Of a stretch of DNA of 64,000 bases, positions 12,233 through 50,911 are shown piece by piece (position 1 is the first letter of the stretch; every line of letters begins with the position of its first letter). Position numbers and translations under genes: made by a program. The notes under the pieces are model-generated. The model saw nothing but the letters and a program-made list of their open reading frames with translations, searched no databases and was not told the DNA's origin. Source of the DNA: a bacterium (lineage in GTDB: Bacteria; Ratteibacteria; UBA8468; B48-G9; DTJG01); the NCBI GenBank assembly GCA_021800535.1, contig JAJYYV010000002.1:25620-89619 (forward strand). The letters are read 5' to 3'.

Positions 12233-12703
12233 ATGAAACAAATAAATAAAAAAATCCAGGAAGAAAAAATTATAAATACAATGATAGAAAATTTTGGGAA
12301 CATAGGAGAAAGTCTTGGACTTAATAGAACTGTGTGCCAGATATATGCCCTGCTATATTTTTCTTCAAATACCTTTACACTTACAGAAATAAGCAAAGCA
12401 CTTGGAATTAGCAAAGCCAATGCCAGCATAAATATAAGAAAACTTGAAGAATGGGATGCATTGAAAAAAGTGTGGAAAAAAGGATATACAAGAAGTCTTT
12501 ATAAGGCAAATGAAAATATTGAAGACATAATATTTAACAGAATAAAATTGGGGGCAGAAAAAAGACTAAAAAGCATCAAACAGGCAACTTCAGGTTTTAA
12601 ACAGTCTTCAAATTCCATAAAAATAAAAAAGCTCAAAGATTTTATAAAAAAAATCGAATTTATACTAAAAAATTTTGACTCTATAAAATCTTTTCTCAGA
12701 TAA
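12233..12703 (+). CDS. MarR/GbsR-type winged-helix transcriptional regulator
   Basis: 156 aa. HTH segment LTLTEISKALGISKANASINIRKLEEWDALKKV. First gene of the plus-strand array. Its stop is 1 nt before the wzm start. Confidence 0.6.
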   Translation: MKQINKKIQEEKIINTMIENFGNIGESLGLNRTVCQIYALLYFSSNTFTLTEISKALGISKANASINIRKLEEWDALKKVWKKGYTRSLYKANENIEDIIFNRIKLGAEKRLKSIKQATSGFKQSSNSIKIKKLKDFIKKIEFILKNFDSIKSFLR

Positions 12704-12704
12704 A

Positions 12705-13526
12705 ATGGAAAGAGTAACAATCATAAAACCATCAAAAAGCTGGCAGATTTTAAAAATCAACGAAATCAGAGAATATAAAGAGCTTCTTTATTTTTTAGTC
12801 TGGAGAAATCTCAAGGTCCGATATAAACAAACAGCCATTGGAGCTTTATGGGCAATCATCCAACCATTTTTAACAATGGTCGTATTTACCCTTTTCTTTG
12901 GTAAATTAGCCAAAATTCCTTCAGGTGGAATTCCATATCCTATATTCTATTTTTCTGCGTTAATTATCTGGACATATTTCGCCAATAGTTTAACATTTGC
13001 CACAAACAGTATAGTATCCTATCAGCATATAATAACAAAAATCTATTTCCCACGGATTTTTTTACCTCTTGCTTCAGTTATAGAACAACTTATTGATTTT
13101 TTTATTGCTTTTATCATTCTTATTGGCATGATGTTTTTTTATCATATTATTCCAACATCCCGTATATTTTTTATGCCATTATTTGTTTTTCTTGCAATTA
13201 TTGCTGCTTTTGGGGTGGGTTTATGGTTTTCTGCTTTAAATGTTCAATACAGGGATGTTAAGTATGCAATAAATTTTATACTGCAGATATGGCTTTTTGC
13301 ATCTCCTATAGCATATTCCTCCACTCTTGTTCCTGCAAAATGGAGAAATATTTATGGATTAAACCCAATGGTTGGAATTATAGAGGGATTTAAATGGACA
13401 ATTTTAGGAAAACCCGCTCCAGATATAAAAGAAATTTTAATATCAACTCTTATTGTTTTTGTAATTCTTATCACAGGACTTTTTTATTTTAAAAATATGG
13501 AAAGAACATTTGCTGATGTAGTATAA
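12705..13526 (+). CDS. wzm: ABC-2 type polysaccharide exporter permease (Wzm/TagG/KpsM-like)
   Basis: 273 aa. Conserved N-terminal RNLKVRYKQTAIGALWAIIQP followed by about six hydrophobic segments. Adjacent to the Wzt-type ATPase. Confidence 0.88.
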   Translation: MERVTIIKPSKSWQILKINEIREYKELLYFLVWRNLKVRYKQTAIGALWAIIQPFLTMVVFTLFFGKLAKIPSGGIPYPIFYFSALIIWTYFANSLTFATNSIVSYQHIITKIYFPRIFLPLASVIEQLIDFFIAFIILIGMMFFYHIIPTSRIFFMPLFVFLAIIAAFGVGLWFSALNVQYRDVKYAINFILQIWLFASPIAYSSTLVPAKWRNIYGLNPMVGIIEGFKWTILGKPAPDIKEILISTLIVFVILITGLFYFKNMERTFADVV

Positions 13527-13531
13527 AAAAT

Positions 13532-14290: not shown

Positions 14291-14303
14291 AGAGAGGGAA
14301 ATA

Positions 14304-14909
14304 ATGGAAGGAAATAATAATGTATTCTGGGAAGAATTAATAATAACCTCTACAGAAAGAGCGAAACAAAAAAATCAAAAACCTTTTGTTGCATGGTTTA
14401 CAGGACTTAGTTGTTCAGGCAAATCAACACTTGCAAAAAACCTTGATAAAAAATTATATAGTATGGGATATCATACATATATTCTTGATGGGGATAATTT
14501 AAGACATGGACTAACAAAAGATTGTGATTTTTCTATTTCAGGCAGGCATGAAAATCTTAGACGAACAGGTGAAGTCGCTAAACTTATGATGGATGCAGGA
14601 CTCATAGTTTTATGTGCCTTTGTTTCCCCTTATATAAAGGACAGAGAAATGTTAACACAGATTATAGGTCCGGAAAATTTTGTTGAAGTTTATGTATCAG
14701 CTCCCATTGAGGTATGCGCCTCCAGGGATAAAAAAGGATTATACACAAAAGCATTTCAGGATAAAAATTTTCTATTAACAGGAGTTAATCACCCCTATGA
14801 AACCCCTGAAAATCCTGACATTATTGTTCAGACAGATAAATTGTCTATCAATGAAAGCATAGAAACCATATATCAATGGCTGATAAAAAACAAATTTCTA
14901 AAAACATGA
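14304..14909 (+). CDS. cysC: adenylyl-sulfate (APS) kinase
   Basis: 201 aa. P-loop FTGLSCSGKSTLA, then YILDGDNLRHGL and the FVSPY motif typical of CysC. Confidence 0.92.
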   Translation: MEGNNNVFWEELIITSTERAKQKNQKPFVAWFTGLSCSGKSTLAKNLDKKLYSMGYHTYILDGDNLRHGLTKDCDFSISGRHENLRRTGEVAKLMMDAGLIVLCAFVSPYIKDREMLTQIIGPENFVEVYVSAPIEVCASRDKKGLYTKAFQDKNFLLTGVNHPYETPENPDIIVQTDKLSINESIETIYQWLIKNKFLKT

Positions 14910-16333
14910 AAACCTGTATCTTTATTCTTGGCATGCACCGTAGCGGCACTTCTGCCTTAGCCGGAACATTAAACTGGCTTGGTGTTTCAATGGGCAAATC
15001 TATAGCAGGTGGAGACCGCCATAATATAAAAGGATACTGGGAAGATAAAAAAATAGAAACTTTCAATGACTATTCTCTTTTCACATTATTAAATCTATTA
15101 GATTTTGATTTTAGGCCTATGCCTAAAAAATGGGAATCTGACAAAAAAATTATTAGTCTCATCCCTGAAGCAAAAAAAATTATTCAAGAGGAATATTCCA
15201 GTTCAAATATTTTTGGTATTAAAGACCCTGCTATATGTCTATTATATCCTTTCTGGAAAAATATCATGGATGAACTTAAAATTTTTAGTAAGGTTATATT
15301 ACTTTTTCGTAATCCACTTGAAGTGGCAAATTCTCTTAAAAAAAGAGATGGTTTCACCTTTGAAAGAAGCCTGTTATTATGTGCCAAACTTTTACTATAT
15401 GGAGAATATTATACCCGAAACACTCCAAGAATATTTGTTAATTATGACAATGTATTAAATAATACACACCAAACAATTCAAAAAATCGAATCAGATTTAA
15501 ACATAAAATTGCCTGAAAAATTTTCAGATGTAAATGATAAAATCACCCGGTTTTTAGAAAAAGATTTAAAACATCATAATTTAGCATTTTCAGATTTAGC
15601 AAAAAAAATTGAATATTCTACTTTACCTTCATTTATATTTGATATTATGGAAGCGTATAATAATTTAACATTAGGGATTATTTTTGACAATGAAACAATC
15701 CGAAAAAATTTTGATGAATGGCGAAATCAATATGAAAATCTTTTAAATTCAAAGCAAATAGACAATTTATTAAATATACCTCCTTCATCTATCCAACTTT
15801 CTCTTGATATGGGAAAAAATTTCCCCGGAGAAAATATTATTACTAAATCCTCAGAAATCAAAACAATATTCCCTGAAAAATTTAAACCTGAAGAATTCTA
15901 TCCTCAGGAACTACATAAATTTATTTTTAATCTTTCAGATAAAAAGAATATAGAATCTATGAAGATTAATCTGTTAAACAATGCCATTGCTATCATTAAA
16001 GATATAAAACTTATTAAAAATAATAATGAGGAAATCCATTTAATTCCATTCATAAATAAAAATTATATATACAGTCACAGAAACAATTCATATTTTTTCA
16101 CTGACGCTTTAAATATTTATTTTTCTAATTTAACACCTGCTTTACTGAAAAATAGTAAACAACTATATATAGAAATAATCTATATCTATAAAGATGAGAT
16201 TGCTTCACAGATTATGATTGAACGGCTAATAAACTCGAAAATCTGGAAAGCAACAGAACCTTTAAGAAAACTAAAATGGCATTTGGTAAAATTATTAAAT
16301 AGATATTACAAGAAGTACGTAAAATATGGCTAA
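14906..16333 (+). CDS. PAPS-dependent sulfotransferase with a roughly 200-aa C-terminal extension of unknown function
   Basis: The 5'-PSB loop is FILGMHRSGTSALAG and the 3'-PB-like motif is LLFRNPLEVANSLKKR. The ORF track starts at 14876. The ATG at 14906 overlaps the cysC TGA (ATGA), so it is the preferred start. Confidence 0.8.
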   Translation: MKTCIFILGMHRSGTSALAGTLNWLGVSMGKSIAGGDRHNIKGYWEDKKIETFNDYSLFTLLNLLDFDFRPMPKKWESDKKIISLIPEAKKIIQEEYSSSNIFGIKDPAICLLYPFWKNIMDELKIFSKVILLFRNPLEVANSLKKRDGFTFERSLLLCAKLLLYGEYYTRNTPRIFVNYDNVLNNTHQTIQKIESDLNIKLPEKFSDVNDKITRFLEKDLKHHNLAFSDLAKKIEYSTLPSFIFDIMEAYNNLTLGIIFDNETIRKNFDEWRNQYENLLNSKQIDNLLNIPPSSIQLSLDMGKNFPGENIITKSSEIKTIFPEKFKPEEFYPQELHKFIFNLSDKKNIESMKINLLNNAIAIIKDIKLIKNNNEEIHLIPFINKNYIYSHRNNSYFFTDALNIYFSNLTPALLKNSKQLYIEIIYIYKDEIASQIMIERLINSKIWKATEPLRKLKWHLVKLLNRYYKKYVKYG

Positions 16334-17774: not shown

Positions 17775-17798
17775 TTAGTTAATCTTATATAATAAAAA

Positions 17799-19028: not shown

Positions 19029-19237
19029 TTATATTTGTACTTATACCTAAAAATTATATAGAATTTTATAACAAAGTAATATAATTAAATTTGATAAAAT
19101 TGAATATCTTAAAAACTATTTTACGATATGTTATATCCTGGTTTATATCTCCAAGTATGACCTATTTTTTATATAAACCAATATTTTTATTATCAAACAA
19201 TACAAAGGTAAAAAAACAACATTGTATTTCTTCAGAA

Positions 19238-21518: not shown

Positions 21519-21676
21519 ATATCCTGAGTTTTCCACTTTCATCTGGATACTCTATAATTCTTTTTTAATATCAAAATTTCTTACATTTTTATACCTATAT
21601 GCCAATAATGTAAGAAAAATGTAATTATTTTTTCACTCTATTGAATATTTTTTAAAAGTATTAAACTAATACCTGT

Positions 21677-21740
21677 GGTATTAATGCGGCTATAGGCTTA
21701 ATCTCTTTTGAAAAAGATGGAATTTATTACTTCATTACTT
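21677..21740 (+). pseudogene. degenerate fragment duplicating the 5' coding end of the GT4 gene at 22444
   Basis: About 85% identity to 22453-22517, with one 1-nt gap. Translates to GINAAIGLISFEKDGIYY versus IAIDAAIGLSSFEKGGIYY. No start codon and no continuation of the ORF. Confidence 0.6.
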
Positions 21741-21766
21741 GACAGATTCCTTACAATATATAAAAT
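21739..21766 (+). promoter_or_regulatory. candidate promoter of the AbrB-PIN cassette
   Basis: TTGACA (21739-21744), a 16-nt spacer, then TAAAAT (21761-21766). The RBS GAGGTG at 21774-21779 precedes the ATG at 21788. Confidence 0.4.
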
Positions 21767-21787
21767 TAATATTGAGGTGAAATTACT

Positions 21788-22021
21788 ATGTTATGTAAAA
21801 AAACATATAAAAATCAGATTACTTTACCAAAAAAAATTATGGATAATTTTAAAAATGTAGAGTATTTTGAAGCAGAATCCAAAAAAGATAGAATTATTCT
21901 AAAACCTGTGGAAATAAGACCAGTATCTCTTCTCACACAAATAAGAAAAAAGATTTCTTCTTTAGGTTTTACTGAAAAAGATATTGAAAAAGCAATATCT
22001 TATGCGAGAAAAAAACGATGA
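21788..22021 (+). CDS. AbrB/SpoVT-type antitoxin
   Basis: 77 aa. N-terminal swapped-hairpin-like segment KNQITLPKKIMDNF...RIILKPVE. 4-nt overlap with the PIN gene. Confidence 0.65.
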   Translation: MLCKKTYKNQITLPKKIMDNFKNVEYFEAESKKDRIILKPVEIRPVSLLTQIRKKISSLGFTEKDIEKAISYARKKR

Positions 22022-22431
22022 ATTCGTTGCCGGTAGTTATAGATACAAATATATTTATTTCTGCTATACTTTTTGAAGGGGAAGTAAACAAACTGGTTTA
22101 TTTATGGCAATGTAATAAAATAAAAATTTTAATGTCTCATGAAATTTTACAAGAGTATATAATGGTACTTTCTTATCCAAAATTCAAATTAAAAAAAAGT
22201 GAAATTGAATATATTATAAAAGAAAATCTGCTTCCTTTTATTGAAGTAATACAAATAAAAACAAAAATAAATCTGATAAAAGATGATATTTCTGACAACA
22301 AATTTCTTTCTCTGGCTATAGATGGTAAAGCAAAATATATTATAAGCGGAGACAAACATTTGCTTTCTTTAAAAAATATTTATAATATTAAAATAATTTC
22401 TGCCAGAGAATTCTTGAACATTATTTATTAA
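22018..22431 (+). CDS. PIN-domain toxin (type II TA)
   Basis: 137 aa. Begins VVIDTNIFISAI (first acidic PIN residue) and ends with DNKFLSLAIDGKAKYIISGDKHL, typical of the PIN_3-type family. Confidence 0.8.
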   Translation: MNSLPVVIDTNIFISAILFEGEVNKLVYLWQCNKIKILMSHEILQEYIMVLSYPKFKLKKSEIEYIIKENLLPFIEVIQIKTKINLIKDDISDNKFLSLAIDGKAKYIISGDKHLLSLKNIYNIKIISAREFLNIIY

Positions 22432-22443
22432 TAAATTTGATAT

Positions 22444-23592
22444 ATGAAAATCGCTATTGATGCGGCAATCGGCTTAAGTTCTTTTGAAAAAGGTGGAATT
22501 TATTATTTATTACCTTATTTTCTCAATACTCTTAGTACATTAGATAAAAAAAATCAGTATGTAATTTTTGGATATTTTTTTAAGAATTATCAAAAAAAAA
22601 TTCAAAATATAAAAATCCCACAGGAGTCTAATTTTTCTTTAAAAACACTTCGCTTACCAGGAGGGTTACTAAGAAATATAGAACAAAATTTACACTTACC
22701 CTTATTAGAATATTTTCTGAAAAATGAAAAAATTTCAGTTTATCATGGTATATCAGGTTCTCGACTTCCTTATTTTAAAAAAATTAAAACAGTCTATACA
22801 GTTCATGATTTAAGCTTTGAAACACATCCGCAATGGTATAAAGAAAAATGGTATAAAGATATTCGCCTGTCAGCAGAAAGAGCTGATATAATTATCAGTC
22901 CCTCTTATTTAACCAAAAAGGATTTAATAAATATATATCATATACCTGAGAATAAAATAAAAGTGGTTTATTGGGGGATAGATACAGATATTTTTTATCC
23001 GGTGAATAAAGAAAAAATTCAAAGAAAAATCATAGATTATTCTCTCCCGGAAAGATTTATTTTAACAATAGTAACTTCTTCCATACAAAGAAAAAATACA
23101 CATAATTTATTAAACGCTTATAAAATTCTTACACAAAATGGTGTAAAAGAAACCCTTGTAATTGTTACAGGAACAGATTACTTAAAAGAAATTATAATGG
23201 AAGTAGCAAAAGAAAAACATTTGGAAGAAAATATAATATGTTATAGCGAAATACCCAAAACAGATTTAACAATATTTTATTCGTTAGCAGAAGTTTTTGT
23301 TTTTCCATCACTTTATGAGGGTTTTGGATTGCCGGTTTTAGAAGCCATGACCTGCGGATGTCCTGTAATTACATCAAATACTTCCTGTTTACCTGAAATT
23401 GTAGATAATGCGGCTATTTTAGTAGACCCTTATAATGCTGAGGAAATAGCAAATGCAATGAAGAAAGTTTTATCTGATGAAAACTTAAGACAACAAATGA
23501 GAAAAAAGGGACTGGAAAGGTCAAAAATGTTTTCCTGGGAAAAAACAGCCAGAGAAACACTGCAGGTTTATTACCAGGCCGCAAATATTTAA
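22444..23592 (+). CDS. glycosyltransferase family 4 (paralog B)
   Basis: 382 aa. C-terminal FPSLYEGFGLPVLEAMTCGCPVITSN...FSWEKTARETLQVYYQAANI closely matches paralog A. Confidence 0.88.
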   Translation: MKIAIDAAIGLSSFEKGGIYYLLPYFLNTLSTLDKKNQYVIFGYFFKNYQKKIQNIKIPQESNFSLKTLRLPGGLLRNIEQNLHLPLLEYFLKNEKISVYHGISGSRLPYFKKIKTVYTVHDLSFETHPQWYKEKWYKDIRLSAERADIIISPSYLTKKDLINIYHIPENKIKVVYWGIDTDIFYPVNKEKIQRKIIDYSLPERFILTIVTSSIQRKNTHNLLNAYKILTQNGVKETLVIVTGTDYLKEIIMEVAKEKHLEENIICYSEIPKTDLTIFYSLAEVFVFPSLYEGFGLPVLEAMTCGCPVITSNTSCLPEIVDNAAILVDPYNAEEIANAMKKVLSDENLRQQMRKKGLERSKMFSWEKTARETLQVYYQAANI

Positions 23593-23634
23593 AAATAAAT
23601 ATTAATAATAATAGTATTATAGTCTACAAATTAT

Positions 23635-25899: not shown

Positions 25900-25907
25900 T
25901 ATAAAAA

Positions 25908-31645: not shown

Positions 31646-32306
31646 TGAAAAAAATACAATATTAAAAATCATTGAAAAAGTAAACAATGTCCCTCTGGAA
31701 AAAGAGATTATTGTTGTTGATGATGGAAGCACTGATGGAACAAGAAATATTTTAAAAAATATTCAAAATACACCTACCTCATCACAAAATCTAAAAATAA
31801 TTTTTAAAGATAAAAATGAAGGAAAAGGTTCAGCAATAAGACAGGGGCTAAAGGAAGTAGCCGGAGATATTGTTACAATTCAGGACGCTGATTTGGAATA
31901 CGAACCAATGGATTTTTTATCTCTTATAAAACCTATAGAAAACTCCCAGACAAAAATTGTGTATGGTTCACGGCTTCTTGGAAGAGGAACAAAATCATCA
32001 TTGATGTTTTACTTGGGTGGACGTCTTCTTTCCTTTCTTGCCAATATTCTTTATGGACAAAAAATTACTGATGAACCAACCTGTTATAAGGTATTTAAAA
32101 CAGAACTGATAAAATCTATACCCTTAAAATGTAAAAGATTTGAATTCTGTCCGGAAATAACAGCTAAAGTAATGAAAAGAGGATATAAAATAGTAGAGCT
32201 GCCCATTCATTATAATCCACGAAGTATAAGTGAAGGAAAAAAAATAAGACTCAAAGATGGCATATCTGCAATCTGGACATTACTGAAATATAAATTTATT
32301 GATTAA
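31614..32306 (+). CDS. short GT2 glycosyltransferase (Dpm1-like)
   Basis: 230 aa. Motifs LSIIIPVYNEKNTI, VVDDGSTDGT and IQDADLEY. Confidence 0.8.
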   Translation: MKLSIIIPVYNEKNTILKIIEKVNNVPLEKEIIVVDDGSTDGTRNILKNIQNTPTSSQNLKIIFKDKNEGKGSAIRQGLKEVAGDIVTIQDADLEYEPMDFLSLIKPIENSQTKIVYGSRLLGRGTKSSLMFYLGGRLLSFLANILYGQKITDEPTCYKVFKTELIKSIPLKCKRFEFCPEITAKVMKRGYKIVELPIHYNPRSISEGKKIRLKDGISAIWTLLKYKFID

Positions 32307-32309
32307 AAT

Positions 32310-32357
32310 GGACAAATTGTAAATATAATTGACAATCTGTCCGATTAGTATTATATT
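32310..32357 (+). promoter_or_regulatory. palindromic operator plus promoter of ATPase gene 1
   Basis: GACAAATT (32311-32318), N15, then AATcTGTC (32334-32341). TTGACA at 32329-32334, a 17-nt spacer, TATATT at 32352-32357. Only 6 nt to the ATG at 32364 and no Shine-Dalgarno. Confidence 0.5.
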
Positions 32358-32363
32358 TCTTTT

Positions 32364-33539
32364 ATGGAAAAATTAATCAAAAGAGATGCAGAAAAAACTT
32401 TAAAACATCTTACCTCAAAATTTCCTGTTATAGCAGTCGTTGGTCCCCGGCAATCAGGGAAAACCACTCTTGTAAAAAAAGTTTTTCCTAAAAGGAGATA
32501 TGTTTCTTTAGAAACTCCTGATATAAGAAGTTTTGCTTTAAATGACCCAAGAGCTTTTCTTAAAACTTATAGACAGGGTAGTATTATTGATGAAATTCAG
32601 CGGGTTCCTGATTTATTATCTTATATTCAAACTATAGTGGATGAAAAAGATGCCCCTGGAGGATATATTATTACAGGTTCTCAAAATTTTCTTCTTCATG
32701 AAAAAATTTCTCAAACCCTTGCAGGCCGGGTAGCATTATTAACACTTCTTCCCCTATCTTTATCTGAACTTCAGGAAACCAGATATAAAATGAAAAAATC
32801 CTGGGATTACATTATAAAAGGATTTTATCCCCGGGTATATAGCAAAAACATCGCTCCTGGCGAATGGTTTTCCAATTATATTCAAACATATATTGAACGG
32901 GATATCCGTTTACTAAAAAATATTACAGATATTGATACCTTTCAACGATTTATTAAATTATGTGCTGGCAGAACAGGTCAAATATTAAATTATTCTTCTC
33001 TGGCAAACGATTGTGGGATTAGTCATAATACTGCACGAGCATGGTTATCAATATTAGAAACCAGCTACATTATTTTTAAAGTTCAGCCATATTATAAAAA
33101 TTTCAATAAACGTATTATAAAAATGCCCAAAATATATTTTTATGATACAGGAATATTAAGTTTTTTACTTGGAATAAAAAATGCACACCAGATAGAACTT
33201 CATTATTTAAAAGGGGCTTTATTTGAAACATTTGTTATTGCGGAAATATATAAATTTTATTTAAACAAAGGATTCCACCCTGATTTATATTACTGGCATG
33301 ATAAAACAGGACATGAAATTGATTTGATTATTGAACAGGGAAATAAAACCTTTGCTATTGAAATAAAATCAGCTGAAACAATAGTTGGAGATTTTTTTAC
33401 AGGAATAAAATATTGGAATTCAATATCTCATAATTTTTCCAAAAATAATTTTATTATTTACAATGGAAACACTGAACAGGAAAGAGATAATATAAAAATT
33501 ATAAACTGGCAAAATTTATCAGAAATTCCTTTAAAATAA
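32364..33539 (+). CDS. AAA ATPase with HTH and C-terminal PD-(D/E)xK-like domain (COG1373 / DUF4143-type)
   Basis: 391 aa. Walker A GPRQSGKTT, Walker B IIDEIQ and an HTH-like segment GISHNTARAWLSILE. C-terminal HEIDLII...FAIEIKS fits a D...ExK nuclease motif. Confidence 0.75.
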   Translation: MEKLIKRDAEKTLKHLTSKFPVIAVVGPRQSGKTTLVKKVFPKRRYVSLETPDIRSFALNDPRAFLKTYRQGSIIDEIQRVPDLLSYIQTIVDEKDAPGGYIITGSQNFLLHEKISQTLAGRVALLTLLPLSLSELQETRYKMKKSWDYIIKGFYPRVYSKNIAPGEWFSNYIQTYIERDIRLLKNITDIDTFQRFIKLCAGRTGQILNYSSLANDCGISHNTARAWLSILETSYIIFKVQPYYKNFNKRIIKMPKIYFYDTGILSFLLGIKNAHQIELHYLKGALFETFVIAEIYKFYLNKGFHPDLYYWHDKTGHEIDLIIEQGNKTFAIEIKSAETIVGDFFTGIKYWNSISHNFSKNNFIIYNGNTEQERDNIKIINWQNLSEIPLK

Positions 33540-33543
33540 TTAT

Positions 33544-33605
33544 AAGACAAATTTGAATTAATAATGCAAATTTGTCTTGACATATCTTGCCTTTAATGAT
33601 ATAAA
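33544..33605 (+). promoter_or_regulatory. palindromic operator plus promoter of ATPase gene 2
   Basis: Perfect 12-nt arms AAGACAAATTTG (33544-33555) and CAAATTTGTCTT (33567-33578) with an 11-nt spacer. TTGACA at 33577-33582, a 17-nt spacer, TATAAA at 33600-33605. 6 nt to the ATG at 33612. Confidence 0.55.
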
Positions 33606-33611
33606 TAAAAT

Positions 33612-34856
33612 ATGAAAATATCTGCAAATATATATATTCCAAGGAAAATAGAAAGTATTTTAAAGGAATATGTGAAAACTTTTCCTGCGATTGCCATCAC
33701 AGGGCCACGACAAACAGGAAAATCCACCCTTATTAAAAACATTTTTAAAAAAACTCATACCATTGTTTCTTTTGATGACCCACTAATAAGAGAAAGGGCT
33801 TTATCAGACCCTAAATTATTTATAGAAAATACCGGAGAAAAAATAGTTTTTGATGAAATTCAATATGCACCCCAAATTCTTTCTTATATTAAAATCCTTA
33901 TTGATAGCAATAGACATAAATATGGAAGATATATAATTACAGGTTCACAACAATTTAGTCTTATCAAAAATTTAGGAGATACTTTGGCAGGTAGAATTGC
34001 TTTGCTGGATTTATTACCCTTTGAAACAGAGGAAAAAAAACAAATTAATTCTTTAAGAAAGAAATTATCAAATCCCTTAGAATGTTTTATACATTCCTGT
34101 CTACAAGGCTCATTTCCTGAAATTGTTATTCATTCAAATTTAAATCCTGAAGCATGGTATGGAGGGTATATTCAAACCTATCTGGAAAGAGATATTAGAA
34201 CTATTTACAATATTGGCATCTTAAGAGAATTTCAACAATTTCTTCATTTATTAGCTGCACGATGTTCTCAAATATTAAATCTTAGTAATTTTTCCAAGGA
34301 TTTAGGTGTTAGTGTTAATACAATAAAAAAATGGTTATCAATTTTAGAGGCAAGTAGAATTATATATATTTTACCACCTTATTATTTAAACTTAGGGAAA
34401 AGAATTTCCAAAAATCCCAAAATATATTTTCTGGATATTGGATTAGTATGTTATCTGACCGGGATAACAAACAAAGAACATTTACTTAATGGACCTTTAG
34501 GAGGGCCATTATTTGAAAATTTTATTATACAGGAAACAGTTAAACATTTTTTTAATAAAGGTATAAGACCTAATCTTTTTTATTTACGAACACATAATGG
34601 TATAGAAATAGATTTACTTATAGAATCTAATCTCCGTTTATTTCCAATAGAAATTAAATTAACCAAATCTCCCAATATCGGAATGGGCAATTCTATAGAA
34701 AGGTTTAAAAAAATATTTAATAGTTTAAAAATTGATGAAGGAAAAATTATTTCTTTAAGTACTGATGAGATGAAAATAACAAAAAATATCTCAATTATTA
34801 ATTTAGATTCTTATTGGAAATACTTAAATGATTTATTGCCCAATATGCAAAAATGA
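33612..34856 (+). CDS. AAA ATPase with HTH and C-terminal PD-(D/E)xK-like domain (COG1373 / DUF4143-type), diverged paralog
   Basis: 414 aa. Walker A GPRQTGKST, Walker B VFDEIQ, HTH-like GVSVNTIKKWLSILE, and C-terminal IEIDLLI...FPIEIKL. Confidence 0.75.
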   Translation: MKISANIYIPRKIESILKEYVKTFPAIAITGPRQTGKSTLIKNIFKKTHTIVSFDDPLIRERALSDPKLFIENTGEKIVFDEIQYAPQILSYIKILIDSNRHKYGRYIITGSQQFSLIKNLGDTLAGRIALLDLLPFETEEKKQINSLRKKLSNPLECFIHSCLQGSFPEIVIHSNLNPEAWYGGYIQTYLERDIRTIYNIGILREFQQFLHLLAARCSQILNLSNFSKDLGVSVNTIKKWLSILEASRIIYILPPYYLNLGKRISKNPKIYFLDIGLVCYLTGITNKEHLLNGPLGGPLFENFIIQETVKHFFNKGIRPNLFYLRTHNGIEIDLLIESNLRLFPIEIKLTKSPNIGMGNSIERFKKIFNSLKIDEGKIISLSTDEMKITKNISIINLDSYWKYLNDLLPNMQK

Positions 34857-36362: not shown

Positions 36363-37945
36363 AATATAAAAATTTTGATTGGAATCTTCTTTTACTGGTT
36401 TTATTTTTTGTTATTATAAAATCTTTTACTCCATATCCCTATCATTTTATAACAATGGATGAACCAAAGTATCTTACTCTTGTTAAAAATTTTCCACATT
36501 ATTTTATTTTTAATAAAAATTTCTGTCTTGATTATCCACCTTTTTATCCTTTTGTAATAAAAATATTTTCAATGGTTTTTCCAGATTATATAGCAGGATT
36601 ATTAGTATCACAACTTTCTGCTCTGGGATGTTTAATAATGAGTATTTTTCTTTTAAAATTATTTAAAGTAGAAAAACGGATAATATATACAACCACAATT
36701 TTTCTTTCTTTTTCATGGCTTTTATATTATTGGTCAAACTTAATTTACAAGGAGATTTTTTTTACTTTTTTGATTCTTTCATTATTTTATTTTTTATTTA
36801 AATCCATGGAAACATCTCAAAAAAAATATATATTTATATCCAGTTTGTTTGGTTTATTTGCTGCTTTTACTACAGACCTGATAGTTTTTGCATTTCCGGT
36901 AATAATAGCCGGCATATTTTTTTATTGGAATAGATGCAGAATTAAAAAAATTTCTTTACTAATTCCCGGAATAGTAACTTTTGTAGGCTATGGAATATGG
37001 CTTCTTATAAGACTATGGTTTTATACCCACTATACCTACTACCCTATTGGAGTTGATGGAATAATTGAAAATGTTTCAAAATTTAATTTTATGAGTATTA
37101 TCACCCCAAGGGATTTTCATTATACAAAACAACTAACACATGCATCTATCTCTTTTAGCCCTTTTAATTACATTAAATATATTGGTTCAATTATAAATTT
37201 TATACCACCATTTCATATTTCATTTTACAGAATATCAAAACTGAAATTTATTATTCTTATACTTTTTATTTATTTGCCCATTCTTTTTTTAATAATTAGG
37301 GGTATTGTAATTTCTTTGAAAAATAAGGAATGGATTGGTATATTTTTATTTATTCTTCTTTTATTTTTTATTTCTCCTGTGGTTTATGGGATTAGTAGTC
37401 CCCGTTTTTCTATAGCAAGTGCTATTTCCATGGCTTATTTTTTTGCAAAAGGTTTTCCTATAATAGAAAAAAAGATATATTTAAAAATTTTTAGAGTTAT
37501 TCTTCCTATTTTTTTAGTATTATTCCTTTTTTACTGGATCTTTAAAAATCCTTATTTTATTCTCTCACTTAAAAAAAAGGTCAATCTTCAAAAAGCAGGG
37601 AATTTTTTAAATACATTGCCTGCAAATGGAGTAATGGCAGAATTTGGAGACCCTCCTTCACTTGCTTATTTAACAAATAAAAGAATTATTGGCTTACCTT
37701 TTGACACTTCACAGATTGAAAAACAGGTTAAATTATTTAAAATAAAATATGTGATTTTTAATGAAACGCAAAAAAACAAAAAATTTGAAATTGCTCCTAT
37801 ATATCTTAATACTATAAATTATATAAAAAATAATTCAAAAAAATTTAAGTTGCTGACTGTAATAAATGAAGGAACCAAAAAATATATGGAAATAGGAAAA
37901 GTAAAAATACCAAAAAGCAAGGTGTTTATTTATGAAACAAAATAG
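36344..37945 (+). CDS. GT-C fold membrane glycosyltransferase (ArnT/PMT-like)
   Basis: 533 aa, strongly hydrophobic and polytopic. First-loop Asp-Glu pair ([10 protein letters not shown]39-E40). C-terminal soluble region of about 130 aa. Confidence 0.6.
37932..37945 (+). repeat. short direct repeat matching the start of the gene at 38231
   Basis: ATGAAACAAAA at 37932-37942 is identical to 38231-38241. With a 3-nt AAA indel, both copies continue to TAG. The sequence is AT-rich and low-complexity, so it is weak on its own. Confidence 0.4.
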
Positions 37946-38015
37946 ATTGAATAAGAAATTTTGATATTTTATTAAAATGGAGCACAATATTTATATTAAT
38001 AAATAAAGGAAATAC

Positions 38016-38234
38016 ATGAAAACAATTTTATCGCCTAAATATCAATTATTGGTTCCTAAAAATATAAGAAAACAACTTAATCTGTCCAAAGGTCAAAAAT
38101 TTTATGTTATTTCTAAAGAAGGAATAATTTTTTATATTCCTGATAAGCCATTATCAGAGTTAAAAGGATTACTTAAAAATACAGATATAAAAGGAATAAG
38201 AGAAGAAAAGGATAGAATAGATAAAGTATTATGA
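38016..38234 (+). CDS. orphan AbrB/SpoVT/MazE-type antitoxin-like DNA-binding protein
   Basis: 72 aa. Swapped-hairpin segment YQLLVPKNIRKQLNLSKGQKFYV. No toxin gene follows. Its stop overlaps the ATG of the GT-C gene (ATGA at 38231-38234). Confidence 0.65.
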   Translation: MKTILSPKYQLLVPKNIRKQLNLSKGQKFYVISKEGIIFYIPDKPLSELKGLLKNTDIKGIREEKDRIDKVL

Positions 38235-39727
38235 AACAAAAAAATAGGGTATTTATAATAGGTCTTATTTTAATTGGTATTATATTAAGATTTTTATTTT
38301 TATCTAAAAGAAGCCTATGGGCTGATGAATTTTGGGCGGTTTATATTGGACAGATGTCTTTTGCCCATATGGTGAATTTTATAACTTACCACGATGCCCA
38401 TCCCCCTTTATTTTATGAAATTGTTCATTTCTGGCTGCATTTTGGTAATAGCGCTTTTATATTAAGAATTATCCCTGCGCTTGCTGGGGTGGCATGTATA
38501 TGGGCTGCCTATATATTAGGAAGAGAAATATTAAACGAAAAGATTGGGTTTATTTTCGCTGCAATTATTACATTTAATCCTGCCCATATCTTATGGTCTC
38601 AGATTGTTAAGTCTTATTCTCTTTTCACTTTTCTTGCCATTATTTCTATTTATTTTTTCTTCAAGGTATTGAAAAAAAGAGAAAAAAAGTATTGGTTTTT
38701 ATTAGGGATTATCAATATTATTCTTTTATACCTTCATAACCTTGGTTTTGTGATAATTCTGATAGAAACAATTACAGTTATTGTTCTAAATATGTTTGAC
38801 TGGGAATGGTTATATTATTGTGTGGCGATTTTTATATGCTATATACCATGGCTATTACATGTTCCACATCAACTACATTTTACTCTTGGCGTTGTCAGAC
38901 CATTTCCTCCATATATAACAATGGCTTATTCTCTCTTTTATTTTGCACTTGGAGAAACAGTGAACCCATTTATGTTTTATATTACAATACCCGCATTTAT
39001 AATATTGATATATTTAATAGTAAAAGGTTTAATTGAAATAAAAAATATTTCTATAGAAAAAAGAATAACTTTATTGATTGGGCTTTTAAGTATTTTCCCT
39101 ATATGTTTTTTCCCTTCTATTGTCCCTCAAAATATTCTGCCTTTATCTATTTTCTGGTATATTTTAATTTCTTTGGCATTATTTAAAATTTCAGAGAAAT
39201 CTTCTGTTTTATTTAAATCTTTGCTTTCATTGGTAATTCTTTTGTTTTTAATTTCAGATTTTTTTCTTTATGCAGGTGTTCATTATAATGACAAGTCAAA
39301 GATTGTTCCATATAAACAGATTGGTAGATTTCTTACGCAGAATGTAAAACCTGATGATATAATATTAACTACAGAAGGGATACTTTATTTCCATGGCAAA
39401 CAATTTTCACCTATTAGCTGGTATTATAAAGGTCCTGCTAAAATAATAGGAATAACAGATAAAACTTCTTTAGAGAATCTTTCTAAAAAATTAAAAAAAT
39501 ATAAAAAAATATGGGTTGAAGCAAATTTTTATGGAAATTATGTTTTATCTAAAAAATTGAAAAATGTTTTATCTAAGCATTTTAAAAATATTTTAGATAA
39601 ATATTATGTTTTAAACAGAAGATGGATTTTGGATAATAAATGGATTGCAAAGAAAATAAAAGAAAGGTCTCCAAAACCATCCTACTATTATCTTATTCAG
39701 GTAATAGAGTATCAACATAAAAAATAA
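38231..39727 (+). CDS. GT-C fold membrane glycosyltransferase (ArnT/PMT_2-like)
   Basis: 498 aa, polytopic. First-loop motif SLWADEFWAVY (D32-E33) is typical of PMT_2/ArnT-like enzymes. Confidence 0.7.
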   Translation: MKQKNRVFIIGLILIGIILRFLFLSKRSLWADEFWAVYIGQMSFAHMVNFITYHDAHPPLFYEIVHFWLHFGNSAFILRIIPALAGVACIWAAYILGREILNEKIGFIFAAIITFNPAHILWSQIVKSYSLFTFLAIISIYFFFKVLKKREKKYWFLLGIINIILLYLHNLGFVIILIETITVIVLNMFDWEWLYYCVAIFICYIPWLLHVPHQLHFTLGVVRPFPPYITMAYSLFYFALGETVNPFMFYITIPAFIILIYLIVKGLIEIKNISIEKRITLLIGLLSIFPICFFPSIVPQNILPLSIFWYILISLALFKISEKSSVLFKSLLSLVILLFLISDFFLYAGVHYNDKSKIVPYKQIGRFLTQNVKPDDIILTTEGILYFHGKQFSPISWYYKGPAKIIGITDKTSLENLSKKLKKYKKIWVEANFYGNYVLSKKLKNVLSKHFKNILDKYYVLNRRWILDNKWIAKKIKERSPKPSYYYLIQVIEYQHKK

Positions 39728-44142: not shown

Positions 44143-44148
44143 ATTATT

Positions 44149-47516: not shown

Positions 47517-47517
47517 A

Positions 47518-48492
47518 ATGGGAAACCCATTGATTAGTTTTGTTGTCCCAATGAAGGAAAAGGATTTCCGGGTTATAAATCTTCTTGAATCTATAAGAAA
47601 ACAAAATTATCCACAAAATAATATTCAGATAATAATAATTGATGGGGGAAGTAACCCTACTGTTTTGGAAGCCTGTAAAAAATATAATGTGGAAATATAT
47701 TTTAATAAATACGGATTTGCAGAAGGAAAAGGAATGGGAAAGGACCAGGGAATCTGGAAATCAAAAGGCAAGTATGTTGTGATATCAGAATCCGATATAA
47801 AACTTGTTGGTGAAAATTGGATAAATGAAATGATAGAACCTCTGGAAAAAGATGAAAAATTTTTTGCAAGTGTACCCGGTTTATATGTAGATAAAAAGGA
47901 TAATATTGTGAACAGATATTTAAGTTATGTGGGAGTTGACCCTTTTGCGATTTTCCGTTCATTGGAAGGTCAGTTAGCATTAGGAAAAGTTGAATTAAAT
48001 GATTGCGGTAATTATTATTGTGTCAATCTTAATAAAAAAGAGCCTTATTGCATGGGGAGTAATGGATTTATGTTTAGAAAAGAATTGATAGAAAAAGTGG
48101 GAGACTATGCCCAGGATGTAGAATTTATTGCCAGGCTTGTAAAGAATGGATTTATAAAATTCGCCATTCCCCAAAATGCAAAAGTTTTTCATGCAAACAT
48201 AAAAAACTTTTATGAATTTCTGAAAAAAAGAATAAAATGGACAAAAACCTACACAAAATTTTATGCAGATGAAAAAAAGGATTTTGTATGGATAATCAAT
48301 AAATACAAATTTTTCATCTATGTAATGAAAAATATTTTTATATTACCCAATATTCCAATTTCAATAAAAAATTTTTTCAAATACAGGGATTCAGCATGGT
48401 TTTTACATCCTTTTTTGCTTTTTCTAACAACATCTATTAATATTTTTTATAGTATGCAATCCAAAAAAATGTTACACAATCTTTTAAAATGA
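47518..48492 (+). CDS. GT2 glycosyltransferase with C-terminal hydrophobic region
   Basis: 324 aa from the ATG at 47518, 1 nt after the previous stop (the track starts at a TTG at 47503). Motifs ISFVVPMKEKD and IIIDGGSNPT. Confidence 0.7.
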   Translation: MGNPLISFVVPMKEKDFRVINLLESIRKQNYPQNNIQIIIIDGGSNPTVLEACKKYNVEIYFNKYGFAEGKGMGKDQGIWKSKGKYVVISESDIKLVGENWINEMIEPLEKDEKFFASVPGLYVDKKDNIVNRYLSYVGVDPFAIFRSLEGQLALGKVELNDCGNYYCVNLNKKEPYCMGSNGFMFRKELIEKVGDYAQDVEFIARLVKNGFIKFAIPQNAKVFHANIKNFYEFLKKRIKWTKTYTKFYADEKKDFVWIINKYKFFIYVMKNIFILPNIPISIKNFFKYRDSAWFLHPFLLFLTTSINIFYSMQSKKMLHNLLK

Positions 48493-48501
48493 ATAATAAA
48501 A
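48489..48501 (+). repeat. 13-nt direct repeat ATGAATAATAAAA, partner at 49256-49268
   Basis: The left copy spans the TGA stop of the GT2 gene. The right copy is the start of the GT-C gene. The VapB-PIN cassette lies exactly between them. The same 13-mer also starts the GT-C paralog at 27805, so chance or paralogy cannot be excluded. Confidence 0.4.
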
Positions 48502-48524
48502 CAATCAAAATCGCTTTAATTTTT

Positions 48525-48561
48525 TTGCATAATGTGTATATTATTGTATAATATACACATT
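48525..48561 (+). promoter_or_regulatory. promoter with a 31-nt perfect palindrome (likely antitoxin operator)
   Basis: TTGCAT (48525-48530), a 16-nt spacer, then TATAAT (48547-48552). The palindrome AATGTGTATATTAT-TGT-ATAATATACACATT spans 48531-48561. The RBS GGAGG follows at 48562-48566. Confidence 0.6.
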
Positions 48562-48575
48562 GGAGGTGTTTAATC

Positions 48576-48797
48576 ATGCAGACGATAGAAAAGGTTCGAA
48601 AGCAGTTTATTCTTGACCCTGAAAAGATTAATATAATTAAACGGCTTACTCATGCTGCAACTGAAACAGAAGCAATAAACAAGGTATTAGATATGGTTAT
48701 TGCAAACGAAAAAATTGAAAAAGCTCTTATGAGTGTCAAAAATAAAGGAAAGATAAAAGATATCTATGGAAGATTACCCGTTCAAAATTATAAGTGA
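48576..48797 (+). CDS. VapB-type antitoxin (Rv0623/DUF2191-like pattern)
   Basis: 73 aa. The segment FILDPEKINIIKRLTHAATETEAINKVLDMVI resembles this antitoxin class. Directly upstream of, and overlapping, a PIN gene. Confidence 0.55.
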   Translation: MQTIEKVRKQFILDPEKINIIKRLTHAATETEAINKVLDMVIANEKIEKALMSVKNKGKIKDIYGRLPVQNYK

Positions 48798-49194
48798 CAC
48801 TTCTGTATACATTCCTTTTATTAATAATGGAATCTTTCATCCTGTATTTTCTAAATCTATCAGACCTGTATTTTATATGAGCATAGTAGTTCTTGTGGAA
48901 CTATACGCAGGATGTCATGATATTAATTCTATAAAACTTGTTAACAAGCTATACCATACTTTTCTTAATGTTAGAAGACTTATTGTTCCTGACAATGAAG
49001 ATTGGAAAAAAACAGGAACTATTATGGCTAAACTTGGACAAAAATATGGGTTTGAATCAAAATATATTGCAAAAATCCAGAATGATATTTTAATTGCATG
49101 TTCAGCACGCGGAATTGGGGCATTTATTGTTACTCATAATAAAAAGGATTTTCTTCGTATAAAAGAGTTTATAGATTTTCAAATTTATGAGTAA
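48766..49194 (+). CDS. PIN-domain toxin (VapC-like)
   Basis: 142 aa. N-terminal acidic-residue context IISDTSVYIPFI. Later NDILIACSARGIGAFIVTHNKKDF is typical of a PIN C-terminus. 32-nt overlap with the antitoxin gene. Confidence 0.7.
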   Translation: MEDYPFKIISDTSVYIPFINNGIFHPVFSKSIRPVFYMSIVVLVELYAGCHDINSIKLVNKLYHTFLNVRRLIVPDNEDWKKTGTIMAKLGQKYGFESKYIAKIQNDILIACSARGIGAFIVTHNKKDFLRIKEFIDFQIYE

Positions 49195-49255
49195 AAAACT
49201 TCTACTGAGGGGATAATTTCATAAAGTTATTATTGGACAGGACTAAGGTTTAAAC

Positions 49256-50911
49256 ATGAATAATAAAATTATTATTTCTATTTTAATTCTTTTCTCAGGG
49301 GTGTTATTTTTTACAGGGATTAACTGGGGGCTTCCTTCTGCAAAAATTAATTCTCTTTATTTTCAGAATACAAAAGACATCAAAAAAACTCTGAATTTGA
49401 TTAAAAAATATAGGCAAAAAAAAGAAAAACCTCCTCGTTATTTATATAATTCTATTCGCAGCTATCATCCAGATGAATATTTTGTTATAAAATCACTTTC
49501 ATCAATAAATCCCCGTAAATTAAATTTCAATACACACCAATTTGCAATAGGAGGGGCTTATATTTACCTGCTGGGTGTCATACTTTTAATTTTTTCAAAA
49601 CTAAAACTTATATATCTTACAAAAAATATCAGTTTTTATTTTTTTCATCCTTTTCAGATTGCAAAATTTTACATTGTTGGAAGAATATTAAGCGGACTGT
49701 ATGGAATAGGTATTATTCTTTTTACCTATCTTCTTGGAACAAATCTATGGAATAATAAAAATGCCGGATTTTATGCTGGAATTCTGACTGCATTATCTCC
49801 ACTTGTTTTACTTAATTCTCATTATATGTATGTTGATATTCCCGGATTGTTCTGGACAATGCTTGCGCTTTTCCTTGCTGTAAAATTTCTAAAAGGCAAA
49901 ACAAATAAATTTATGCCATTTCTTATAGGAGTTGCATGCGGAATTGCATCAGGGAATAAATTAACATTCGTTCTGTCTTTTCTTATTCCATTTTTTACCT
50001 TTGTTTTACTGGAAAAAAATCGGTTTATTTTAAGAGCTAAAAATGTGTTTTTTTCTTTTATTGGCTTTATACTTGCTTTTTTTATAACAAATCCTTATTT
50101 TTTAAACGCCTTTCATCAATTATTCTTTGGGAAAGGTAAAAATGCTGTTGCTTTAAGTTTTCAACCAAATTTTTATTTCTTATCTCTAAAAGATGGATTA
50201 GGATTATTCCTGTTAATTTTTTTACTCGCAGGAATTATTTTTGCATTTTTTAAAAAAGAGAAAGAAATTCTTGAATCTGATAAGATGCTTGTTTTATTAT
50301 GGATTGTAAGTTTTTTTGTTATAATGTCTTTTTTTGCGCTAAAATTTGCCCGATATATTCTTCCTATTATACCTTCTTTTATTGTTTTAGGCATAGGATT
50401 CTGGATGAATTATACAAACAGAAAATATTCAATTGTTAAAAAGATACTTCTTATTCTTGTAGTATTTATAACTTTTATTTATGGAATTTCATTTTTATCT
50501 CTTTTTATCAGAAATACAAGAACAAAAGCAGGTGAATGGATTTCTCAGAATTTACCCGGAGGAACAACAATTGGAGTTACAGAAGTGCCCTGGCAGTTTC
50601 AGGTGCCGCCTTTAAATGAAGAAAAATATAAAATAAAATCTACTGGTTATAATATCCATAAAGTAAAAAAACTATTGCCTAAATATTTTCTTATTTCTTC
50701 TTTCCAGGCTCCTATTCCTACATATCCTGTTAATCTTAGGGAAGCAAAAAAAAAATTCTGGAAACAGTTAAAAAAAACAAATATATATAAACCAGTTAAA
50801 ATGTGGCGGATTGAACCTTCATTTTTCGGTTTTACCTTCAAATATAAAACAATGCCGCAGGACTTAATTTATTTAAATCCCACTATTATTCTGTTAAAAA
50901 AAGGACATTAA
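49256..50911 (+). CDS. GT-C fold membrane glycosyltransferase (ArnT/PMT-like)
   Basis: 551 aa, polytopic. First-loop motif SYHPDEYFV (D73-E74). C-terminal soluble domain of about 120 aa. Confidence 0.6.
   Translation: MNNKIIISILILFSGVLFFTGINWGLPSAKINSLYFQNTKDIKKTLNLIKKYRQKKEKPPRYLYNSIRSYHPDEYFVIKSLSSINPRKLNFNTHQFAIGGAYIYLLGVILLIFSKLKLIYLTKNISFYFFHPFQIAKFYIVGRILSGLYGIGIILFTYLLGTNLWNNKNAGFYAGILTALSPLVLLNSHYMYVDIPGLFWTMLALFLAVKFLKGKTNKFMPFLIGVACGIASGNKLTFVLSFLIPFFTFVLLEKNRFILRAKNVFFSFIGFILAFFITNPYFLNAFHQLFFGKGKNAVALSFQPNFYFLSLKDGLGLFLLIFLLAGIIFAFFKKEKEILESDKMLVLLWIVSFFVIMSFFALKFARYILPIIPSFIVLGIGFWMNYTNRKYSIVKKILLILVVFITFIYGISFLSLFIRNTRTKAGEWISQNLPGGTTIGVTEVPWQFQVPPLNEEKYKIKSTGYNIHKVKKLLPKYFLISSFQAPIPTYPVNLREAKKKFWKQLKKTNIYKPVKMWRIEPSFFGFTFKYKTMPQDLIYLNPTIILLKKGH

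Follow-up and report, generated by a model that had tools for sequence, protein, structure and literature searches.

Toxin-antitoxin and candidate defense cassettes probably inserted with target duplication at coupled gene junctions of a bacterial glycan operon

Results

We analyzed a window of 64,000 nucleotides (nt) from a metagenome-assembled genome (MAG) of the Ratteibacteria (NCBI GenBank contig JAJYYV010000002.1, positions 25,620 to 89,619; C13:25620-89619), which comprises 2.0 Mb in 86 contigs with about 29% G+C. A long operon for the biosynthesis of a glycan in this window is interrupted by four small units that hold two VapBC-type toxin-antitoxin (TA) pairs, one pair of which apparently only the antitoxin is left, and a PDC-S01/DUF4143 defense candidate in two copies. 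Below we refer to these units as cassettes 1-4, to their sites as seams 1-4, and to the glycan genes upstream and downstream of them as U1-U4 and D1-D4, respectively. The four units are probably independent, lineage-specific insertions of selfish cassettes that entered without a recombinase, duplicated their targets, and were filtered by selection for intact coupled neighbor genes. The insertions, the empty sites in relatives, the origin of the repeats from their targets, and the absence of mobility genes and terminal repeats are direct observations.

An initial annotation of the window had proposed that cassettes are inserted at the start codons of coupled operons, or are selectively retained there. 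Insertion at gene junctions is supported by relatives with empty sites at seam 3 (five genomes), seam 4 (five) and seam 2 (three). Selective retention is the version that fits best, as each duplication spans an overlapping stop/start and both flanking genes are intact. The coordinates of all features are collected in Table 1.

Duplicated stop/start overlaps at seams 3 and 4

In five genomes of a single genus, g9 (G031, G026, G039, G049 and G030), U3 overlaps D3 by 11-17 nt (for example, tATGaaattaaaaaaTAA), and the U3 protein ends in (Y/F)E(I/T)K(K/R)-stop. The left copy of the seam-3 repeat in the window reads ...YETK-stop and holds the relic ATGAAACAAAA. The right copy, when translated in the U3 frame, still gives YETKK-stop, the ancestral end of U3, though U3 is no longer upstream of it. 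Both copies match the overlapping junction, and therefore the TTATGAAACAAAA(AAA)TAG junction was duplicated around the insert. The core of the repeat, TTATGAAACAAAA, is identical at 13 of 13 positions (37930-42 versus 38229-41), and with a 3-nt indel it extends to TTATGAAACAAAA(AAA)TAG (16/19 nt); its score was reached by 11 of 500 local shuffles.

The inserted cassette 3 carries a single antitoxin gene, AbrB3, whose stop codon is the TGA of the D3 ATGA. In G050, the gene for a homolog of AbrB3 (62% identity) overlaps through ATGA with a downstream gene for a PIN-like protein of 121 amino acids (aa). From this arrangement we infer that cassette 3 is a TA pair that later lost its toxin, possibly by deletion between TATGA microhomologies.

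At seam 4, the empty arrangement is seen in five genomes (G024, G047, G050, G021 and G059), where U4 adjoins D4; the ATGA overlap is readable in four of them. The left copy in the window keeps ttttaaaATGAataataaaa, after which the cassette begins, and the right copy at the D4 start is tttaaacATGAataataaaa. The repeat is 20 nt long, with ATGAATAATAAAA exact, and none of 500 local shuffles reached its score.

The PIN protein of cassette 4 (family PIN4) has no homolog at E <= 1e-10 in the 64 other genomes of the class. A large protein collection held 164 relatives, of which the best are 76-79% identical and come from metagenome assemblies; the named ones belong to Nitrospirota MAGs. Judged by this distribution, cassette 4 is foreign to the class. 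Nine other loci of the family share the promoter and the palindromic operator (TGTGTAT...ATACACA), but on the upstream side their similarity reaches no further than about 50 nt from the vapB start, and the 3' tail is common to some of them only; as read from these alignments, the unit is thus a bare promoter-to-stop cassette without terminal structures.

In the closest relative found, L042 (JABEBX010022401.1, protein identity 69-86%), U4 is likewise followed by TTTTAAAATGAATAATA. Right after ATGAATAATA at its D4 start (8363-8466), the sequence departs into unrelated DNA of higher G+C content, with 100 nt left before the end of the contig; the U4/D4 junction of L042 may be occupied by a different, perhaps repetitive, insert. 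A 16-nt string, TTAAAATGAATAATAA, is present both at the junction of genes 44823 and 45539 (45534-45549) and in the seam-4 left copy (48484-48499). Gene 45539, which encodes a 175-aa methyltransferase, is positioned differently from its homologs in G047 and G021, and the match at 45534-45549 may represent another junction-duplicating rearrangement or chance. We also considered that the block 45539-48492 had itself been inserted at the D4 start, and dropped this option, as four or five relatives carry the block directly before D4. Mini open reading frames (ORFs) begin at the relic start codons of the left copies, at 48489-48548 (19 codons), 37932-37945 (4 codons) and, at seam 2, 32308-32322 (4 codons). 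These are coupled to the stops of the upstream genes, and the 19-codon one crosses the promoter and operator of cassette 4.

The cassette structure does not come from misassembly. An identical U3 protein was found on 21 contigs, five of which, from five samples, were aligned. These five assemblies, independent of each other and from other samples, have 100% identity over up to 21.6 kb spanning seams 2 and 3, which excludes an assembly artefact and shows that the insertions are fixed in the strain; no empty allele was found among the five contigs.

Partial duplication of the downstream gene at seam 1

The repeat at seam 1 is the longest, with 52 matches over 60 positions and one gap; it scored 78, versus a maximum of 36 in 500 shuffles. 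Its left copy is a 5' coding fragment of D1 and is closest to the D1 of this genome itself, not to the orthologs. The final 12-14 nt of the left copy coincide with the CATTAC operator repeat of the cassette, and therefore the left joint lies in microhomology, although an imperfect one (D1 ATTATTTATTAC versus cassette ATTACTTCATTAC). The initial annotation had described direct repeats around three units, in each case with a right copy that begins at the ATG of the downstream gene. The duplications are indeed derived from their targets, but the right copy at seam 1 starts 11 nt past the D1 ATG.

A filler of 160 nt separates the U1 stop from the left copy. The gmd gene is located between the U1 and D1 orthologs in G022, G034 and G032, and is absent from the whole window. 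No gmd remnant and no other match were found in the filler. We infer a later loss of gmd at this seam.

Homologs of cassette 1 with 60-70% identity are present in five relatives (G015, G047, G031, G049 and G060), and their upstream regions are conserved, with CATTAC(T)T repeats around a TTGACA box. None of these five AbrB-PIN homologs has flanking repeats, and their contexts are unrelated. Another AbrB-PIN pair of this genome, on contig C75 inside a string of housekeeping genes, likewise has no flanking duplication. Cassettes 1 and 4 both have the type II VapBC layout, in which a PIN toxin gene follows a small overlapping antitoxin gene with its own promoter-like/operator region. The earlier observation that each unit brings its own promoter-like elements agrees with the conservation of the predicted promoter/operator regions in homologous cassettes elsewhere.

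Seam 2 and the paired DUF4143 genes

U2 and D2 are 4 nt apart in G028, G025 and G035, where the U2 stop, one base and the D2 ATG follow each other (TAAaATGg). One further genome has a 45-nt gap between the two genes, while G022 and G034 hold a gene for a 491-aa membrane protein at this junction. The TAAaATGg that follows U2 in the window is at most suggestive of a relic of the U2/D2 junction, the motif being common in the window. No significant duplication was found at seam 2. The match of about 69% identity that had been claimed around this block does not exceed chance: it has no shared run longer than 8 nt, and 88 of 500 shuffles reached its score.

The content of cassette 2 also differs from its first description as an ATPase-nuclease pair: the two genes are paralogs with AAA_14 and DUF4143 domains. 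Both proteins match the PADLOC model PDC-S01 (PDLC04790) over their full length (2.6e-104 and 3.8e-94), and they are candidates for single-gene phage defense of the PDC-S01/DUF4143 type. The second ORF extends 29 nt into D2. Upstream of each of the two DUF4143 genes lie a promoter-like site and a palindrome of 31 nt (32311-32341 and 33546-33576), GACAAATT...AATyTGTC; the palindrome overlaps or abuts a TTGACA box and is probably an operator. The first palindrome starts directly after TAAaATGg. A role of GACAAATT...AATTTGTC as a shared recombination site was rejected, since in this genome it is found only before the two ATPase genes.

Mobility functions and genome-wide search

No transposase or integrase had been seen in the initial annotation, and a Pfam search of all large ORFs found none in the window. 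The cassette ends share no inverted repeat. The inverted repeats listed for the window are not situated at the cassette ends, and the ends share no motif. With respect to integrons, there is no integrase domain in the window and no shared inverted repeat at the ends of the cassettes; with respect to transposons and miniature inverted-repeat transposable elements (MITEs), we found no terminal inverted repeats, no fixed length of target duplication and no multiple copies, each cassette being single-copy in the genome. No tRNA gene is present in the window, and no Rfam match in it reached the gathering score.

Exact 11-14-mers, as well as ungapped seeds scoring at least 15, were used to look across the 2-Mb genome for other cassettes flanked by a duplicated start of a gene, and none was found. 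This search returned only tandem paralogs and one chance match, between rplC and rplD (12 nt).

A second duplicated junction in the VapB-PIN family

Among the nine other loci of the VapB-PIN family, seven were tested for flanking repeats, and one context, represented by two assemblies, has a junction duplication. In L058 (Logan ERR14788553) and L059, from two related metagenome assemblies, hsdM and hsdS of a type I restriction operon are separated by a same-strand cassette with 79% identity to cassette 4. The duplication in L058 (2236-2257 versus 3049-3070) covers about 22 nt, of which 18 match by eye (18/22), and the alignment tool matched 15 of 16. The hsdM gene ends in TTTGAAGGGGTTGGGGTTTTGA, and TTTGAAGGAGTTGGGGAAATGAGGGATGG occurs 27 nt into the called hsdS. 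Translated in the hsdM frame, the right copy gives LKELGK-stop; the TGA of this stop shares bases with an in-frame ATG, from which an HsdS-like start, MRDGW, is read. One of 400 shuffles reached the repeat score with tight windows, and three of 300 with wide windows. From the reading frames, L058/L059 is an independent second case with the architecture of seam 4, namely a duplicated ATGA junction.

Six other members of the family have no convincing flanking duplication; a 12-nt match in L060 was reached by 7 of 300 shuffles. These members are located between lolA and pdxA, after aroA, before guaA, and in TA or CRISPR neighborhoods. The initial annotation had named cassettes at unrelated positions without flanking duplications as the outcome that would speak against it. 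The findings come close to this, since the AbrB-PIN pairs of five relatives are repeat-free in unrelated contexts, although the VapB-PIN duplication does recur in one context.

Discussion

Proposed route of insertion

In the explanation that we consider probable, a self-contained cassette, reaching from its own promoter to its stop codon, would enter a stop/start junction of the translationally coupled glycan operon. Entry would take place without a cassette-encoded recombinase and with a direct target duplication of variable length. The left copy would keep the stop of the upstream gene, and the right copy would rebuild the start of the downstream gene. Only insertions whose duplication covers the overlap (ATGA or 11-17 nt) would leave both genes intact, and purifying selection would keep these. 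Survivors would be seen at gene starts, with duplicated starts, because only overlap-covering duplications spare both genes; in the cases observed here, both neighbors survived because the stop of the upstream gene and the start of the downstream gene lie within the duplicated segment. Three joining routes, between which the footprints do not distinguish, are indicated by the variable length, the absence of motifs at the ends and the single joint at which microhomology can be read. These would be microhomology-mediated illegitimate joining, template switching, and Campbell-type entry of a circle with a short arm.

Several points weigh against this explanation. The molecular step that creates the duplication is deduced rather than observed, and microhomology could be judged at one joint only, as no donor sequences are known. 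The genomes with empty sites are distant (30-65% amino-acid identity), and the pre-insertion sequence follows from position and reading frame, not base for base. Seam 2 has no significant duplication. The left copy at seam 1 lacks the ATG region and stands beside 160 nt of unexplained filler, which requires extra events. The insertions are fixed, the five assemblies being identical, and no polymorphic empty site was seen. Finally, three junction duplications in 38 kb versus none elsewhere in 2 Mb is a higher concentration than selection alone obviously predicts.

Alternative explanations

The cassettes may have been kept because they stabilize the locus through post-segregational killing and add internal promoters. 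This proposal is compatible with any entry mechanism, and we regard it as doubtful. The locus makes up 1.9% of the genome and holds two PIN genes, while a whole-genome scan with PF01850 gave seven matches, including one of the two. It also holds two AbrB-like genes, for which a scan with PF04014 gave three matches, again including one of the two, and 2 of about 9 DUF4143 genes. Insertion of restriction-modification units into operons has been proposed to enforce maintenance of the operon (PMC4615327). Read-through from the cassette promoters into downstream glycan genes is plausible, because cassettes 1, 2 and 4 are headed by strong promoter-like sites and none of the four is followed by a terminator-like site; the sites before cassette 1 and before the first ATPase gene are the two best plus-strand matches in the 19-39 kb region. 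However, one cassette has lost its toxin, and about a dozen syntenic clusters in relatives do without these cassettes; an AbiE pair is present in one of the clusters and RAYT-type genes are present in two. Variable surface-glycan loci gather accessory genes anyway, and the enrichment in PIN, AbrB and DUF4143 genes is of the kind usual for such loci.

According to another explanation, which seems rather improbable, the insertions were made once in the homologous operon of another strain and were imported with their duplications by homologous recombination. Such mosaic exchange is in line with the gene content of the cluster, which varies among relatives at corresponding junctions (this concerns gmd at seam 1 and a GT-C gene at seam 2, and blocks near seams 3 and 4 occur in some genomes only), and also with the fact that the cluster is closer to genomes of the sister family than to those of its own family. 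However, import only relocates the original event and leaves the origin of the duplications unexplained, and the seam-1 left copy is closest to the D1 of this genome itself.

A dedicated mechanism could instead recognize coupled stop/start junctions or start codons and insert cassettes with a duplication of about 20 nt. The clustering of three junction duplications in one 38-kb operon would agree with such a mechanism. So would the two events of the same VapBC family that occurred in different lineages, both at ATGA overlaps and with about 20-22 nt duplicated, and the divergence of L042 right after ATGAATAATA at the same D4 start. Against it, the repeats vary from about 16 to at least 60 nt, and the four cassettes have no common end motif, hairpin or inverted repeat. 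No candidate enzyme was found in the window, and homologous cassettes are mostly repeat-free in other kinds of context. The C75 pair and an AbiE-like pair in G038 have no duplication. The RAYT-like genes in the G019 and G021 clusters have REP-like hairpins instead of duplications, and selection on overlapping genes alone predicts the observed positions. We therefore consider a dedicated mechanism quite improbable; its start-codon-targeting form, as first suggested for this locus, is not supported, in view of the range of repeat lengths, the lack of an end motif and the absence of a further case in the genome.

Chance matches between AT-rich, low-complexity gene starts and ends, with cassettes merely placed in intergenic spacers, are a highly improbable source of the repeats and are largely refuted for seams 1, 3 and 4. 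In favor of chance are the G+C content of the genome (about 29%), the recurrence of ATGAATAATAA-type starts, and two matches, of 16 nt between the start of gene 45539 and the seam-4 left copy and of 12 nt between the starts of rplC and rplD. Against it, when 60,000 gene pairs were drawn at random from this genome, only 0.16% had a shared run of at least 13 nt between stop and start windows, whereas two of the four seams (3 and 4) reach it, the score of seam 1 is more than twice the shuffle maximum, and the reading-frame relics match the ancestral junctions of relatives. Repeat statistics indistinguishable from chance, which the initial annotation had named as an outcome against its proposal, apply to seam 2 only, where the explanation by chance still stands.

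Relation to known systems

Insertion with long target duplication was reportedly described for restriction-modification gene units by Nobusato et al. in 2000. Furuta, Abe and Kobayashi (2010) reported such insertion for restriction-modification units that carry no mobility genes and produce long, variable target duplications (PMC2853133). These duplications often span start/stop sites while the target genes stay intact, and operon-like targets are included (PMC2853133).

The cassettes described here are similar in that addiction-type units without a transposase or integrase have on both sides direct repeats of variable length that correspond to one copy of the target at the empty site. In both systems the repeats often span the translation start/stop, the target genes are intact, and insertion into operon-like targets is known. 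At seams 3 and 4 the copies map to one stop/start overlap of the relatives and at seam 1 to the 5' region of D1, while no such target applies to seam 2.

Several features differ. The cargo here consists of type II TA pairs and a single-gene defense candidate, and overlapping junctions of one coupled operon were hit at least three times. The seam-1 repeat (60 nt) exceeds the 30-bp working criterion of PMC2853133, whereas the duplications at seam 3 (16/19 nt), seam 4 (20 nt) and L058 (about 22 nt) are below it, two of those in this operon thus measuring 16-20 nt. Double-strand breakage by restriction enzymes, as suggested in PMC2853133, is inapplicable to PIN RNases.

Among insertion sequences (ISs) and MITEs with long or variable duplications, a length of about 20 nt is a shared feature (IS1630 has target duplications of 19-26 bp, cited in PMC2853133), but terminal inverted repeats, a transposase and a multicopy family are all lacking here. 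RAYT-like genes occupy other junctions of the glycan cluster in relatives (G019 and G021); in contrast to our cassettes, they are flanked by REP-like hairpins and not by target duplications, and none is present in the window. Vibrio-type superintegrons contain small promoter-bearing TA cassettes in a long co-directional array, and a role against large deletions has been proposed for them. The glycan operon is similar in its interspersed promoter-bearing TA cassettes and co-directional array, but it has no integron integrase in the window and no hairpin or inverted repeat at the cassette ends, and its target-derived repeats differ at each site. A paper on target-duplicating insertion of TA cassettes was not found in the full-text literature searched, which leaves most subscription journals uncovered.

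The movement of chromosomal TA and small defense cassettes without mobility genes is poorly understood, and this locus gives a clean footprint of it. Recombinase-free entry with such a footprint has until now been reported mainly for restriction-modification genes. It would extend the restriction-modification model of insertion with target duplication to TA cassettes, and it illustrates how gene overlap restricts which insertions survive. Duplicated gene starts could guide searches for cassettes of recent entry and flag internal promoters in long operons. A broader generalization, which at present appears unlikely, would be a general recombinase-free entry route for TA and defense cassettes, with duplications of about 20-90 nt, that fills coupled junctions in compact genomes. 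One VapBC family would then use this route in at least two phyla (GT2/GT-C genes here, hsdM/hsdS elsewhere). In its stronger version, an undescribed function of the host or the cassette would actively target junctions.

Genomic context and additional observations

Table 1. Coordinates of the operon, the seams and the cassettes in the window (position 1 is the first letter of the window)
Feature	Position	Strand	Description
Glycan biosynthesis operon	12233..50911	+	ABC-transporter type; Pfam, gap table, synteny with relatives
Gaps >=40 nt outside the units			62 nt before GT9; 42 and 138 nt around inverted NTP-transferase gene
Gaps >=40 nt bordering or inside the four units			269, 57, 72, 70, 83, 61 nt
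Filler at seam 1	21519..21678	.	160 nt between U1 (GT4) stop and left repeat; relatives carry gmd here
Seam 1, left copy	21679..21738	+	D1 (GT4) 5' coding fragment, about codon 5 to codon 23, without ATG
Seam 1, right copy	22455..22513	+	within intact D1 GT4 gene (22444-23592)
Cassette 1	21726..22431	+	operator repeats, promoter, AbrB/MazE-like, PIN_3
Cassette 1 promoter-like site	21739-21766	+	TTGACA-16-TAAAAT; 11/12 match
AbrB/MazE-like antitoxin	21788-22021	+	match below Pfam cut-off
PIN_3 toxin	22018-22431	+	PIN_3 at 2e-20, TIGR00305; 4-nt overlap with antitoxin gene
Seam 2, possible relic junction	32304..32311	+	TAA-a-ATG-g directly after U2 stop; no gene now starts there
Cassette 2	32311..34827	+	two tandem paralogous AAA_14+DUF4143 genes
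Cassette 2 genes	32364-33539, 33612-34856	+	41% identical to each other
Promoter-like site before ATPase 1	32329-32357	+	11/12 match
Seam 3, left copy	37930..37945	+	TTATGAAACAAAATAG; last codons and stop of U3 (36344-37945), relic D3 start codon
Seam 3, right copy	38229..38247	+	TTATGAAACAAAAAAATAG; at start of D3 (38231-39727)
Cassette 3	37946..38234	+	leader with promoter-like site (at 37961), orphan AbrB-type antitoxin (38016-38234)
Seam 4, left copy	48482..48501	+	U4 end (47503-48492), ancestral ATGA stop/start overlap, first D4 codons
Seam 4, right copy	49249..49268	+	at D4 start (49256-50911)
Cassette 4	48502..49248	+	promoter, operator, VapB-like, PIN/VapC, 54-nt tail
Cassette 4 promoter-like site	48524-48552	+	TTTGCA-17-TATAAT; 10/12; overlaps operator
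Cassette 4 palindromic operator	48533-48559	+	27 nt
VapB-like gene	48576-48797	+	73 aa
PIN/VapC	48766-49194	+	PIN at 1e-6; 32-nt overlap with VapB-like gene

The operon comprises about 40 co-directional genes that encode an ABC-transporter-type glycan pathway according to Pfam. Its content includes a MarR-like protein, Wzm/Wzt, an APS kinase, a B12 radical-SAM enzyme, GT4 glycosyltransferases, GT9 and AsnB. In addition, there are pairs of a short GT2 and a PMT_2/GT-C membrane transferase, sugar-nucleotide dehydrogenases/epimerases, and methyltransferases. Upstream, the locus is flanked by divergent nusA and infB, and downstream by queA, mreBC, PBP2 and rodA. The tight packing noted earlier was confirmed, with most plus-strand genes overlapping or at most 24 nt apart. 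The plus-strand array has nine gaps of at least 40 nt, rather than the eight larger gaps counted previously, and six of the nine border or lie within the four units. Because synteny of the cluster core extends to many sister-family genomes (40-80% protein identity), the cluster is best read as an old chromosomal locus with mosaic gene content, and not as a recently acquired island. Two proteins of the cluster have no Pfam family, namely those encoded at 14876-16333 (485 aa) and by U3 (533 aa). The sole NCBIfam match of U3 is weak, to a putative glycosyltransferase of the Leptospira LA_3751/3752 type.

Other accessory genes were seen in the glycan cluster of relatives. An AbiEi/AbiEii-like pair, identified from N-terminal sequences only, lies upstream of the homolog of the GT4 gene 24781 in G038 (L020, 7058-8339), and no flanking duplication was found at it. 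RAYT/IS200-like tyrosine-transposase genes are present at two differing junctions, in G019 (L026, 1286-1951) and G021 (L055, 701-1429), and are flanked by palindromic REP-like hairpins such as CCGCCCCCGCAGTGG and CCACTGCGGGGGCGG. Outside the window, at C16:26850-26900, a degenerate copy of the N-terminal part of a helix-turn-helix (HTH) antitoxin gene lies about 160 nt upstream of an HTH-PIN pair (C16:27012-27718).

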